Below are positions 1-6,713 of a stretch of DNA of 8,403 nt, piece by piece. Position 1 is the first letter of the stretch. Every line of letters starts with the position of its first letter. The position numbers were made by a program, and so were the translations under genes. The stretch is from a virus (Duplodnaviria; Heunggongvirae; Uroviricota; Caudoviricetes), in the IMG/VR virus record IMGVR_UViG_2802429224_000013, one strand, 5' to 3'. The notes below the pieces were generated by a model that saw only the letters and a program-made list of their open reading frames with translations, made no database searches and was not told where the DNA came from.

Positions 1-32
1 AAAACAGCCATGTGTAACGCTCTGACCGTTAC

Positions 33-63
33 AAAAAGAGAAAGCGCCCCGTTGCCGGAGCGC
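33..63 (-). terminator. Rho-independent terminator closing the leftward repressor unit
   Basis: Seen in sequence: GCGCCCCG (44-51) pairs with CGGAGCGC (56-63) around a 4-nt loop. On the minus-strand RNA this is an 8-bp stem with one G.U pair, followed by UUUCUCUUUUU (complement of 33-43). On the plus strand only CTTTGTG follows the stem, so it is mainly a minus-strand terminator. Confidence 0.6.
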
Positions 64-314
64 CTTTGTGAACGAATTACCTGTAGCACCGCGATGTTTG
101 CTATATGGGTGAATTTTAGCGACAAGTTCGTTCAATGTGAAGGCGCTGATCACCGTTACTACAGCACGCCAGAAATGCAGAATATTTTGCTGCAAAATGC
201 CGTTGGCCACGCCGTCCGGAAAGCAAAAAATTTTGCTGGTGGCGCGACCGATACGATTTTTTCTGGTAGCCCGGTGCTGATCAACTTAGCTTGGATTTAT
301 GTGCAACATTGCAA

Positions 315-467
315 CTATTCCGACTTTAAGCTGAATGTGACTTTACCTATATCTTTAGAGGTGTGGTCGCGCTTGACCTCTATTTCACCATTTTGTAGCC
401 CTGCTACAAAAAAATATAAAAGTGTCAATGCTGCTGCAATCAGTAACCATTTTCTAGGAATATACAT
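315..467 (-). CDS. Small single-pass membrane protein (50 aa), function unknown
   Basis: Hand-translated minus-strand ORF, below the length cutoff of the supplied track: MYIPRKWLLIAAALTLLYFFVAGLQNGEIEVKRDHTSKDIGKVTFSLKSE. It has a basic N-terminus, an ~18-residue hydrophobic helix and a charged tail. It starts 21 nt after the RHH stop, on the same strand, upstream of the terminator at 33-63. The SD is weak (AAGGG, 11 nt upstream). No homologue recognised. Confidence 0.45.
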   Translation of the reverse strand: MYIPRKWLLIAAALTLLYFFVAGLQNGEIEVKRDHTSKDIGKVTFSLKSE

Positions 468-488
468 TCTTGATTTTACCCTTAATCA

Positions 489-662
489 TCAACCTTTTGG
501 CTCGATGCCCCGCTGTTGTAATTCTTTGCGGAGTACTCGTTTAATCCAAGTAGCTAATGAGGTGTCGCCGTCTGCTTTGGCTGCCTCCTCAAGTTGCGCT
601 CTAAATTCTTCTGGTAGTCGCATTTGGTATGGTGGCGATCGTTTCTCTAATGGTGTTGACAT
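489..662 (-). CDS. Arc/Mnt-family ribbon-helix-helix DNA-binding protein (57 aa), probable island repressor
   Basis: Hand-translated minus-strand ORF, not in the track: MSTPLEKRSPPYQMRLPEEFRAQLEEAAKADGDTSLATWIKRVLRKELQQRGIEPKG. The segment PPYQMRLPEEFRAQL...DGDTSLATWIKRVL aligns by eye with P22 Arc (PQFNLRWPREVLDL...NGRSVNSEIYQRVM), giving beta-strand, helix, helix. The SD AAGGG lies 8 nt before the ATG. The start codon abuts a perfect palindrome. Confidence 0.72.
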   Translation of the reverse strand: MSTPLEKRSPPYQMRLPEEFRAQLEEAAKADGDTSLATWIKRVLRKELQQRGIEPKG

Positions 663-684
663 GGTAATTACCCTTAATTACTAT
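656..684 (+). promoter_or_regulatory. Putative sigma70 promoter for the rightward operon
   Basis: Seen in sequence: consensus -35 TTGACA (656-661), a 17-nt spacer, then TACTAT (679-684, 4/6 to TATAAT). The spacer contains the GGTAATTACC palindrome. The predicted start near 691 gives a ~100-nt 5' UTR before the ATG at 793. A possible leftward -10 TACAAT is the complement of 703-708. Not experimentally supported. Confidence 0.4.
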
Positions 685-714
685 AGTTACATGGTAATTA
701 CCATTGTACTTACC
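659..714. promoter_or_regulatory. Operator region: two copies of palindrome GGTAATTACC plus an extra half-site
   Basis: Seen in sequence: the 14-bp exact direct repeat ACATGGTAATTACC occurs at 659-672 and 689-702, 30 bp apart centre to centre. Each copy contains the perfect 10-bp palindrome GGTAATTACC (663-672, 693-702). A further TTACC half-site lies at 710-714. The repeats sit between divergent genes, overlap both putative promoters and abut the RHH start codon. Assigning them to the RHH protein is inference. Confidence 0.55.
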
Positions 715-720
715 ATTACG

Positions 721-762
721 CAAAAAACAACGCCCCGCAGTGCTGGAACACATGCAGGGCGT
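721..762 (-). terminator. Orphan minus-strand intrinsic-terminator-like hairpin inside the rightward 5' UTR
   Basis: Seen in sequence: ACGCCCCGCA (730-739) pairs with TGCAGGGCGT (753-762), a 10-bp GC-rich stem with one mismatch and a 13-nt loop. On the minus strand it is followed by UGUUUUUUG (complement of 721-729). No minus-strand gene lies upstream of it, so it may end a small antisense RNA. Confidence 0.5.
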
Positions 763-792
763 CTAACCAAACCGTTAAACGAGGTAACGATT

Positions 793-1161
793 ATGGCTGG
801 AACACAGCATACCCAAACTCACCCTAAATTTATATACACCTTCCTGGCGGTGCACCGTGATTGCATCGCTGACGGTAAAAATACTGTTCATGTAGCCGCC
901 GATACGCTGGTTGATGCCTGCGAGATGCTCAATGACATGGGCTATATCTCGGCAACATGGAAAGGGCGTGAAGAAAACACGTTGTTTATTCAGAAATGCG
1001 AAAACAATTTTATCTGGCGTTTTATCGCCCTGAGTACGGCACAACCGCGCGTGATTCACATCGAGGCCACCAGCGAACAGGAAGCACGCCAGCAATCTCC
1101 TGATGGCTGCGTGATGGTATTCGCTGCCCGTATTCGCCAGGAGGTGCATCATGTGCAATAA
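793..1161 (+). CDS. Icd-like (host cell division inhibitor-like / Ash-region) protein, 122 aa
   Basis: This is the C-terminal part of track ORF 10..1161. GAGG (781-784) lies 8 nt before the ATG at 793. The motif THPKFIYTFLAV...NFIWRFIAL...RVIHIEATSEQEAR...VMVFAARIRQEV matches my memory of proteins annotated 'host cell division inhibitor Icd-like' in P4-like and PICI-like islands. That family call is from recall and is not verified. Confidence 0.6.
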   Translation: MAGTQHTQTHPKFIYTFLAVHRDCIADGKNTVHVAADTLVDACEMLNDMGYISATWKGREENTLFIQKCENNFIWRFIALSTAQPRVIHIEATSEQEARQQSPDGCVMVFAARIRQEVHHVQ

Positions 1162-4835: not shown

Positions 4836-5366
4836 ATGACTAAGCTGACCATTAACAGAAAACCAAAAGGCATTTACGGCACGCCGCAGAAAACGACGCA
4901 GGCGGCGCAAGAGCAGGATAAAACCACGTCGGCGCATAAAGTGATGCCCGGTAACCAGAAAGCGCAGCAGAAGCCCACAGGGGCGACACCGTGGCGGCAT
5001 ATGACCAAACGCCAGCGCAAAAACCGCAGGCGCGTTAACCGCCTCACTGAGTTGTGGCCTGACTTATTCAGCCGGGAAGCACCGAAGCCGCTTAAGGTGG
5101 GGATATTCGACGACCTGATGCAGGATCTCGCCGTCAGGGGGCTGGCATTCGGGCCAGGGGCATTGCGTGCGACGCTGGCATCTTATGCGCAGTGTCCGCG
5201 CTATTACCGCGCCTTAATGGCTGGTGGGGTACGCTACGACCTGAAAGGCCAGCCGTGCGGCGAGGTGACACCACAGGAACAACAGGACGCAGAAACGCGG
5301 CTGGTGGCGCTGAATGAGAAGCGCAAACGTCAGCGCCGGGCAGCAAAGGAGAAAACAGGCGCATGA
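4836..5366 (+). CDS. ProQ/FinO-domain RNA-binding protein (RNA chaperone family)
   Basis: Track ORF 4800..5366. The start is uncertain: GTG 4800, ATG 4824 or ATG 4836, with 4836 having GGGG 6 nt upstream. The N-terminus is basic and Gln-rich. The segment LTELWPDLFS..PKPLKVGIFDDLMQD...GALRATLASYAQCPRYYRALMAGGVRYDLKGQPCGEVT matches the ProQ/FinO domain signature as I remember it. Confidence 0.78.
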   Translation: MTKLTINRKPKGIYGTPQKTTQAAQEQDKTTSAHKVMPGNQKAQQKPTGATPWRHMTKRQRKNRRRVNRLTELWPDLFSREAPKPLKVGIFDDLMQDLAVRGLAFGPGALRATLASYAQCPRYYRALMAGGVRYDLKGQPCGEVTPQEQQDAETRLVALNEKRKRQRRAAKEKTGA

Positions 5367-5650: not shown

Positions 5651-5655
5651 CGGAG

Positions 5656-5679
5656 GCCGGGATTTTTCCCGGCTTTTTT
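5656..5679 (+). terminator. Rho-independent terminator ending the first rightward operon
   Basis: Seen in sequence: GCCGGGA (5656-5662), TTTT loop, TCCCGGC (5667-5673), then TTTTTT (5674-5679). It starts 6 nt after the PerC-like stop. Confidence 0.78.
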
Positions 5680-5685
5680 GTGCCA

Positions 5686-5726
5686 GTAAAAAACCCGCAG
5701 CCAGAAGTGTTGCGGGCTTTGTTTTT
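5686..5726. terminator. Second, bidirectional-looking terminator hairpin
   Basis: Seen in sequence: CCCGCA (5694-5699) pairs with TGCGGG (5711-5716), extendable by a G.U and a C-G pair. An A-run precedes it (5686-5693) and CTTTGTTTTT follows (5717-5726). Confidence 0.55.
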
Positions 5727-6025: not shown

Positions 6026-6064
6026 TGGTCGTGATTTTTTGGTGAAAAAAGAGAGGTGGTAAAA

Positions 6065-6649
6065 ATGCCAGCAAGCAAAGAAGATTTGCGATTAAAACTG
6101 ATGGAGGTGGTTAACGCTCTGTCAGAGTCGCAGGGCAGCACTCCGCAGGAGATTATCGAAATTCTGAATGCGATCCCCGCACAGGATTTCACAAAAGCGG
6201 ACGAGGATGACGCGAATAAAAACATCGTCGCGTCAGTCGAAGATGAATCCTCACTGGCAGAAGCCCAGGCTAAAGCGGATTCCGCATACAGCAATATGGG
6301 CCGTCGCGCTCCAGCCCCGTTTGCTGGTGAAAAGTCGATGGATTACCGCAAGCGTGCATTAATTGGTGCACAGAAGCTGGCTAAAAAATTCAGTGATGTG
6401 GATATTCGTTCCGTTTCAGATTCTGCAACGCTGGCGGTGCTGGAAGATCAGATTTACCAGGCTGCAAAAGACAGTGTTCAGTGGGCTGTGGAAAATACGC
6501 CGGGCTATTTGCGTAAAACCGTAAGAATGGATGAAGCCGGACGGCGGATTACTGAATATCAGGGGGATCCGAATAACTGGCTTAGTGCTTTCAAAATCCC
6601 TCCCCGTCGCCTGGTTAAAATTAACGTTGCAAGCCTCGCGGGGGCATGA
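6065..6649 (+). CDS. Hypothetical protein (194 aa), acidic N-terminal half
   Basis: Track ORF 6056..6649. The ATG at 6065 is preferred because GAGAGG (6051-6056) lies 8 nt upstream. No family recognised. It is co-oriented with and close to the flanking genes. Confidence 0.72.
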   Translation: MPASKEDLRLKLMEVVNALSESQGSTPQEIIEILNAIPAQDFTKADEDDANKNIVASVEDESSLAEAQAKADSAYSNMGRRAPAPFAGEKSMDYRKRALIGAQKLAKKFSDVDIRSVSDSATLAVLEDQIYQAAKDSVQWAVENTPGYLRKTVRMDEAGRRITEYQGDPNNWLSAFKIPPRRLVKINVASLAGA

Positions 6650-6713
6650 AAAACGTGCTGATTTCAGCCCTGCCGGATTTGGTGGGGCTTATTGCTTATA
6701 ACCGGGGGACATT

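Follow-up and report, generated by a model that had tools for sequence, protein, structure and literature searches.

The locus and a proposed antisense RNA

The 8,403-nucleotide stretch of viral DNA analysed here (IMG/VR record IMGVR_UViG_2802429224_000013; the whole of it is called the window below, position 1 being its first letter) is a piece of an Escherichia coli phage-inducible island or of a P4-like satellite. Its rightward operon is headed by a gene for an Icd-like protein, and the leader, ribosome-binding site and first codons of this gene are overlaid on the opposite strand by the element that is the subject of this work. We propose that positions 722-798 (minus strand) probably encode a cis-antisense RNA of the SymR type, of about 77 nucleotides (nt), which would lie over the ribosome-binding site and start codon of the icd-like gene and repress its translation. 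The features on which this proposal is built are the following.

721-728, minus strand: U-tract of the terminator, reading UUGUUUUUU (from the sequence and a terminator scan)
729-763, minus strand: Rho-independent terminator hairpin with 10 bp in its lower and 3 bp in its apical stem, an internal mismatch and a loop of 6 nt (743-748)
722-798, minus strand: predicted SymR-like cis-antisense RNA of about 77 nt, with its start at A798 and its 3' end in the U-tract (722-728) (from fold, conservation and symR similarity)
766-797, minus strand: 5' hairpin of the predicted antisense RNA, with helices 794-797/766-769 and 785-791/771-777
811-806, minus strand: predicted -10 box of the antisense promoter, TATGCT, within codons 5-7 of the target gene (from conservation and the symR alignment)
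829-835, minus strand: weak candidate -35 region, containing TATAAA, 17-18 bp upstream of the -10 box
781-784, plus strand: Shine-Dalgarno sequence GAGG of the Icd-like gene
793-1161, plus strand: Icd-like cell-division inhibitor, the target gene, 122 aa, in a tandem two-domain form (NCBIfam, RefSeq naming)

A preliminary description of this DNA had drawn attention to a minus-strand terminator with no minus-strand gene to terminate, and both parts of that observation stand. The GC-rich stem at 729-763 is followed on the transcribed strand by the U-tract, as in a Rho-independent terminator, and the minus strand 3' of the hairpin reads UUGUUUUUUG, the reverse complement of 721-730. No minus-strand open reading frame (ORF) ends there, and the nearest one, 662->489, begins downstream of the hairpin. 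The hairpin region folds to -24.6 kcal/mol on the minus strand (z = -5.2) and to -18.1 kcal/mol on the plus strand; C736 and A756, which form a mismatch on the plus strand, correspond to a G.U pair on the minus strand. The predicted RNA (798->720) folds into a structure of two hairpins, with a minimum free energy of -35.2 kcal/mol (z = -5.2). In its 5' hairpin the loop (778-784) bears CCUC, which matches the Shine-Dalgarno sequence base for base as its complement, and positions 793-795 are complementary to the AUG.

Conservation and the selected strand

Relatives of the element were gathered in two ways. About 120 loci came from IMG/VR, retrieved by a pattern within 805-824, and 49 loci came from one-genome-per-species contigs, retrieved by a pattern over the Shine-Dalgarno region and the ATG, so that their downstream sequence is unbiased. 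Since the retrieval pattern fixes most of the IMG/VR sequences at 805-824, all statements about the promoter use the independently retrieved set only. Two Clostridia matches were due to chance and were dropped, and the structure statistics refer to 113 distinct sequences from satellites and prophages of Enterobacterales. The hosts of the relatives include Escherichia, Salmonella, Citrobacter, Klebsiella/Raoultella, Kluyvera, Pantoea, Serratia, Rahnella, Hafnia, Cedecea and Xenorhabdus. The covariance model across homologous islands that had been suggested could be built, and the hairpin is conserved in it.

The consensus structure calculated by RNAalifold reaches -32.7 kcal/mol for the minus strand against -9.5 kcal/mol for the plus strand, and the minus strand is the more stable one in each of the 113 sequences, with a mean gain of 10.5 kcal/mol. 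It consists of 24 pairs in three helices, with 97.7% of the cells paired, whereas in a control with the partners slid by 1-3 columns only 34-45% were paired. Double-sided changes are seen at 14 of the 24 pairs (197 cells), and none of 500 shuffles reached the observed values. The terminator helix carries compensatory changes at 12 of its 13 pairs while 97.4% of its cells stay paired, and the U-rich tail is kept in most relatives. At its apex the relatives form three additional pairs (G749-C742, U750-A741 and G751-C740, where GUG/CAC co-varies with CUG/CAG), so the loop of 13 nt that had been described shrinks to the 6 nt of 743-748.

The cells of the 5' hairpin are paired in 97-99.6%, and this hairpin varies chiefly by A-U to G-U and C-G to U-G switches in either direction, which keep the pairing on the minus strand only. 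Altogether G.U pairs fill about 423 of 2692 pair cells (about 16%, as a sum over the counts), and their plus-strand equivalents are A.C mismatches. This asymmetry in G.U cells and in energies excludes, in our judgement, a structure selected in the plus-strand leader, although that explanation keeps a small place among the alternatives weighed below. The comparison shows what we read as selection acting on a minus-strand RNA. Its terminator hairpin is at the same time hypervariable, with 94 alleles among 120 elements. The alleles follow the left-hand immunity flank almost 1:1; two loci, L001 (4731-4767) and, with one base different, L055, have the left flank of the window yet quite different hairpin interiors (window positions 728-764 were compared).

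Relation to SymR and the predicted antisense promoter

The sole notable Rfam match of the region is symR (RF01809), which aligns with 726-798 on the minus strand over model positions 1-77 with 26.2 bits; its E-value is 0.003 in a search of 191 nt and 0.13 when all of the window is searched. For the reverse comparison a covariance model, R1, was built solely from the 113 family members and searched against 22 kb around the hsd-mcr region of E. coli K-12, where its top match was the annotated symR itself (9836-9923, the annotation being 9836-9912) with 34.7 bits and E = 1.4e-7, a value that is rough, as are all E-values from this purpose-built model. The ends coincide, model position 1 falling on the +1 of SymR, and the second-best match had 14.4 bits; an O157:H7 copy outside the training set scores 60 bits. 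K-12 SymR folds to -37.8 kcal/mol (z = -5.3) in the same two-hairpin shape as the predicted RNA.

SymR/symE is an E. coli type I toxin-antitoxin locus, and the features that our prediction has in common with it go from one end to the other. SymR, like the RNA predicted here, is a 77-nt cis-antisense RNA of two hairpins that covers the Shine-Dalgarno sequence and the AUG, and its 5' end lies 6 nt inside the target ORF (the sequence is AGUCAU for SymR and AGCCAU for our element); the GUGUU...GCAC apex and a UG(A/G)UUAG linker are common to both, along with the reciprocal covariance-model matches. In the pairwise alignment TATGCT stands over the symR -10 box TAGAAT, and both lie 7 nt before the A start, in codons 5-7 of the target ORF. 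The symR box was proved by the silent mutation CATTCT->CACTCC, which abolished SymR and increased SymE synthesis (Kawano et al. 2007, PMC1891008). SymR blocks symE translation, and neither Hfq nor RNase III is required (PMC1891008; PMC4147584). The two systems differ in the target, which is a protein of the AbrB fold in SymE and an Icd-like division inhibitor here, and in the U-tract, which is canonical in our element; and our element heads an early operon of satellites and prophages. We conclude that the element is SymR-like and probably homologous to symR.

The promoter can be followed in the independently sampled set. The hexamer at 811-806 reads TAnnnT in all 39 distinct variants, T1, A2 and T6 being invariant, and takes the forms TATGCT, TAGACT, TACTAT and TACCAT. 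The residues encoded over it differ (His, Ser from both codon families, Gly). Seven variable nucleotides come next and then an invariant AGCCAUA, an arrangement typical of a -10 box with a spacer before the start site, which would be A798. The antisense promoter is proposed from conservation and homology. According to the preliminary description, an RNA of about 100 nt would start from TATAAA (the complement of 829-834); relatives have TGTAAA, CTGATA, CTGAAA or GATTTC at this place, and the best-supported RNA is one of about 77 nt (798->722) from TATGCT. The alternative -10 candidate TAAATT (832-827) was rejected too, not being conserved in the unbiased set. What did survive of that description, with strong comparative support, is its core: a minus-strand RNA that ends at the terminator and is antisense to the leader, the Shine-Dalgarno sequence and the start codon. 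Its length, its promoter and the role given to an 11-mer repeat did not.

The 11-mer repeat and the ProQ/FinO protein

The repeat and the protein with which the RNA had been connected are located as follows.

742-752, plus strand: first copy of the 11-mer GCTGGAACACA, over the apical stem and loop of the terminator
796-806, plus strand: second copy of the 11-mer GCTGGAACACA
4836-5366, plus strand: ProQ/FinO-domain protein, putative partner of the antisense RNA (PF04352, E = 1.1e-23)

The two copies are exact, as had been reported, and a search of the window that tolerated 2 mismatches gave no third copy. In 8.4 kb, chance alone should produce about 0.12 pairs of identical 11-mers lying within 60 nt of each other, so the repeat is unusual in itself. 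Its proposed meaning, a link between the terminator loop and the start codon, found no support among the relatives. The full 11-nt repeat is present in one of 120 related elements, the window alone, and the next-longest shared run is 8 nt. Across the 120 elements the longest run shared by the apex and the start-proximal segment averages 4.28 nt against 4.26 nt after permutation, and 389 of 1000 permutations reach the observed value (p = 0.39); the co-variation hinted at by an alignment of four sequences was gone once 120 were used. A family-wide likeness in composition does exist between the two segments (AACAC, GCUG..., with runs of about 4.2 nt against 3.5 nt when internally shuffled), and it raises the odds of a coincidence of this kind. 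Read on the minus strand, the second copy takes in the final base of the -10 box, then the spacer of 7 nt and 3 nt at the 5' end of the predicted RNA, so that with a start at 798 nearly all of it would lie outside the RNA and would not be displayed by it. In the mRNA, positions 796-808 can pair as GCUG-GAACA-CAGC. We conclude from this comparison that the exact repeat appears to be an allele-specific accident and no conserved device.

The ProQ/FinO-domain protein was confirmed by its Pfam match, and the NCBIfam models for FinO and ProQ also match it, below their cut-offs. Members of this family bind structured antisense RNAs, type I antitoxins among them, as well as terminator hairpins that carry a 3' tail (PMC5391140). 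Homologues were found by tblastn in 18 of the 81 related loci whose sequence continues downstream for 6 kb or more, all 18 belonging to one closely related island lineage with 92-99% protein identity. Because the gene is limited to these loci, a general dependence of the RNA on a FinO protein encoded by the island is unlikely. The ProQ of the host is a possible partner, and our literature search found no statement of SymR binding ProQ. Any tie between the predicted RNA and the ProQ/FinO protein of the island is purely a conjecture.

Weighing of the explanations

Several points speak against a SymR-like repressor RNA and should be considered together. The Rfam match stays below the symR gathering score of 61 bits, and the element is not a member of RF01809 as curated by Rfam. 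The Icd-like protein is unrelated to SymE (BLASTP, E = 19), and no LexA box was found near the target promoter (656-720), which in this respect differs from that of symE and carries presumed repressor operators instead. The candidate -35 region matches the consensus at just 3-4 of 6 positions, in the window as well as in the relatives; a simple consensus promoter scan reported neither of the two antisense promoter candidates; and a preference for codons or amino acids could in principle hold the -10 positions. Finally, double changes occur in just 2 of the 11 pairs of helices 1 and 2, which are mostly conserved instead, so that the plus-strand constraints of the Shine-Dalgarno sequence, AUG and coding could partly explain their conservation.

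An insulating function is one alternative. The hairpin would then be merely a terminator that shields the repressor promoter and operators from stray antisense transcription, with no RNA made from a dedicated promoter. The position of the hairpin directly upstream of the leftward promoter region, the nearly 1:1 association of its alleles with the left-hand immunity flank and the negative result of the promoter scan are all in keeping with this, and we still hold it improbable, as it leaves unexplained the conservation of the 5' hairpin specifically on the minus strand (the G.U switches), the invariant TAnnnT and AGCCAU start, and a similarity to SymR that runs from end to end. We give somewhat less credence to the FinP-like circuit of the preliminary description, where an RNA of about 100 nt from TATAAA would contain the complements of both 11-mers, contact the initiation region with its terminator loop and depend on the ProQ/FinO protein. 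The architecture does resemble that of FinP/traJ/FinO in F-like plasmids: FinP, about 79 nt long, is an antisense RNA made up of two stem-loops and a 3' tail; in a mobile-element operon it is complementary to the start of the first gene, over the 5' untranslated region, the ribosome-binding site and the initial codons, and its hairpin sequence varies among alleles. Moreover, the island in the window has a FinO-domain gene of a family that binds such RNAs (PMC5391140), and the exact repeat is real. On the other hand, TATAAA is not conserved as a -10 box while TATGCT/TAnnnT, 18 bp downstream, is invariant; the 11-mer is confined to one of 120 elements and shows no co-variation; the supposed loop is mostly paired; and a FinO-domain gene is absent from most of the elements that carry the RNA, the ProQ homologues of 18 of 81 loci forming a single lineage. 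Rfam gave no match to FinP, in sequence or structure, in 690-880 at E <= 10, and the nearest relative is SymR.

Very improbable, in our opinion, is a function of the plus-strand mRNA leader, either as a stabilising 5' hairpin or as a processed sense regulator similar to P1 C4 or P4 CI RNA, with the minus-strand features being incidental. The icd gene of phage P1 is controlled by the sense-encoded C4 RNA, and the P1/P7 C4 and P4 CI systems share with our proposal an RNA regulator at the icd ribosome-binding site, at the head of an immunity or antirepressor operon, and polarity. The plus-strand hairpin still has -18 kcal/mol, and there is a weak Rfam match to the antisense RNA of plasmid R1162 (728-800, plus strand; 18.3 bits, E = 0.42 in the local search) with CUAACCA...GAGG...AUGGCU in common, which we treated as noise, curious as the common leader motifs are. 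Against such a function stand the plus-strand consensus fold of just -9.5 kcal/mol and the approximately 16% of pair cells that would be A.C mismatches. With Rfam, neither C4 nor IsrK was matched, either across the window (E <= 1) or in the local search (E <= 10), and no sequence complementary to the loop exists elsewhere on the plus strand. C4 and CI are sense-encoded, processed from the same transcript and act through short complementary boxes, whereas our element is predicted to be a separate countertranscript, and the strand under selection here, unlike that of C4/CI RNA (P1, P7, P4, N15), is the antisense strand. A C/A-rich plus-strand RNA mimicking GcvB targets was also considered and dropped, as the strand comparison favours the minus strand.

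Genomic context of the island

The SymR-like element stands next to what is presumably the immunity switch of the island, with these additional features.

656-684, plus strand: rightward promoter-like site, TTGACA, 17 nt, TACTAT, which would transcribe the icd-like operon (sigma-70-like, 10 of 12 matches)
659-675, 689-705 and 701-717: three ACATGGTAATTACC-type palindromic repeats, presumed operators of the island repressor
662->489, minus strand: divergent 57-aa ribbon-helix-helix-like ORF, presumed island repressor (weak matches)

Given this promoter, the 5' untranslated region upstream of the ATG at 793 is roughly 100 nt long, in agreement with the earlier estimate. The ACATGGTAATTACC-type repeats overlap the rightward promoter as well as the ATG that begins the leftward 57-aa ORF, whose matches to Pfam Arc (E = 0.0079) and NCBIfam YlcI/YnfO_N (E = 4.8e-4) are both under cut-off. 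An open frame at 10-1161 (plus strand) spans the repressor gene and the operators. Four database proteins called Icd-like (P0001, P0003, P0005 and P0008; 184-212 aa, 98-100% identity) are probably over-extended gene calls, with the start placed too far upstream.

The product of 793-1161 matches the NCBIfam family NF033153, "host cell division inhibitor Icd-like", over residues 73-116 with 80.6 bits (cut-off 25), and the RefSeq naming agrees; this annotation implies that the target would be a division inhibitor. The 122-aa protein resembles a tandem duplicate, with PKFIYTFLAV...VHVAADT in the N-terminal part and NNFIWRFIAL...VIHIEATSEQEAR at residues 73-116, and most of its relatives have a single Icd-like unit of 61-96 aa. 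A tblastn search of this protein against 50,697 phage records, aimed at P1-type loci, returned 1 match only, its distance from the phage Icd proteins being too great for this kind of search.

The ORFs that follow the icd-like gene overlap, for example the ATG at 1151 with the stop at 1159-1161. In the closest relatives, which are about 95% identical and adjoin an integrase, an AlpA-type regulator and an AntA/AntB antirepressor, the order of genes is Icd-like, small ORFs, DUF4222, RepA-type helicase, ProQ/FinO, PerC, DUF2213 and small-terminase-like. Directly 3' of the PerC gene the window has two tandem terminator-like hairpins with U-tracts (5654-5723, plus strand) that Rfam matches weakly to Bacillus ncr1175 (28 bits, E = 0.076), probably on account of the double-terminator shape alone. 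Other strong terminator-like hairpins are situated at 41-66 (minus strand, 11 pairs), at the left edge of the window, and at 6666-6689 (plus strand, 10 pairs), after the gene at 6056-6649.

A portable cassette

BLAST comparisons indicate that the segment from 721 to about 850 is a recurrent module boundary, with variation on both sides, in the left flank that bears the repressor and operators and in the body of the downstream gene. Many matches start exactly at 721, and they often end near 799, 811, 835 or 852; the candidate -35 region coincides with the right-hand edge of the shared cassette. The ORFs behind the elements begin alike, their first 14 or so residues reading MAxxQHTQT(H/R)PKF, and the leader with its 14 codons precedes Icd-like proteins of 61-122 aa (in sizes of 61-66, 80-96 or about 121 aa), primase-like proteins and an unrelated protein of about 170 aa. 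A promoter inside these codons, as inferred above, would explain why they travel with the leader and why the BLAST matches end where they do. We therefore regard the leader and the first 14 or so codons, with the predicted promoter in them, as a portable cassette that is found before different ORFs in many satellites and prophages of Enterobacterales. Among 5426 complete E. coli genomes, 1367 carry the element.

Individual copies deserve a short mention. In three loci (L014, L027 and L131) the leader and first 14 codons (MADIQHTQTHPKF) are fused straight to a zinc-finger, primase-like protein. Seven others (L133, L139, L148, L152, L165, L166 and L174) have a variant N-terminus (MANADSNTQARPEI...) on the unrelated protein of about 170 aa; this clade occurs in Cedecea, Dryocola, Buttiauxella and Enterobacter and retains the hairpins, and its -10 box, TACTAT, comes after a TGT in the manner of an extended -10. 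In lambdoid prophages and a Morganella phage (L002 2501-2632, L003 and L005 4001-4132) the element comes with a small unannotated Icd-like ORF and is located about 110 bp upstream of a divergent 449-aa gene. Copies of 76% identity, in phage mEp460_ev081, Morganella and Klebsiella phages and E. coli prophages, had been read by us as a stand-alone non-coding module with a 14-codon ORF. This reading was ruled out, as the ORF of mEp460_ev081 is cut short by a nonsense mutation (TGG->TAG) and its relatives retain the small unannotated Icd-like ORF.

Proposed mechanism

From the structure, strand, conservation, -10 box and symR similarity described above we infer a plausible course of regulation. 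The RNA would start at A798 from the -10 box TATGCT (811-806), which is inside the first codons of the Icd-like gene, and its 3' hairpin would terminate transcription. In the 5' hairpin, the stem would be complementary to the start codon and the loop would present CCUC. Being fully complementary to the mRNA over 722-798, the RNA would hide GAGG (781-784) and AUG (793), and by analogy with SymR this pairing may block the translation of the Icd-like inhibitor. The downstream replication operon would probably also be reduced through polarity, a step suggested by the overlap of the following ORFs, and one with an analogy in the c4-icd-ant operon of P1, where an RNA regulator at the icd ribosome-binding site has polar effects downstream.

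At the level of the island, the RNA may act as a threshold or as a second lock on the switch, beside the ribbon-helix-helix repressor and its presumed operators at 659-717. The rightward and the antisense promoters would face each other at a distance of about 110 bp, and strong rightward transcription could hinder the promoter of the RNA. We may even imagine a self-contained "SymR cassette" that is shuffled before different toxic or early genes, with symER as a domesticated copy, a nearly invariant 5' hairpin that cross-represses co-resident elements and a hypervariable terminator (94 alleles) that sets specificity or binds the FinO-domain proteins of some islands; we think this wider scheme rather unlikely.

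Significance

The control of phage-inducible islands and P4-like satellites is currently ascribed to protein repressors and to antirepressors of helper phages. No antisense RNA at satellite Icd-like genes was described in the literature that we searched, and the recent satellite papers in it give the Icd-like, PerC and ProQ/FinO genes merely as accessory genes. If the proposed RNA is real, it would add an RNA layer to the induction of satellites and to the control of a host division inhibitor, in an element that approximately one in four complete E. coli genomes carries. Satellite-encoded FinO-domain proteins would also gain a concrete candidate ligand. The SymR family would then extend far beyond symE, and an origin in mobile elements would be suggested for the chromosomal symER locus.

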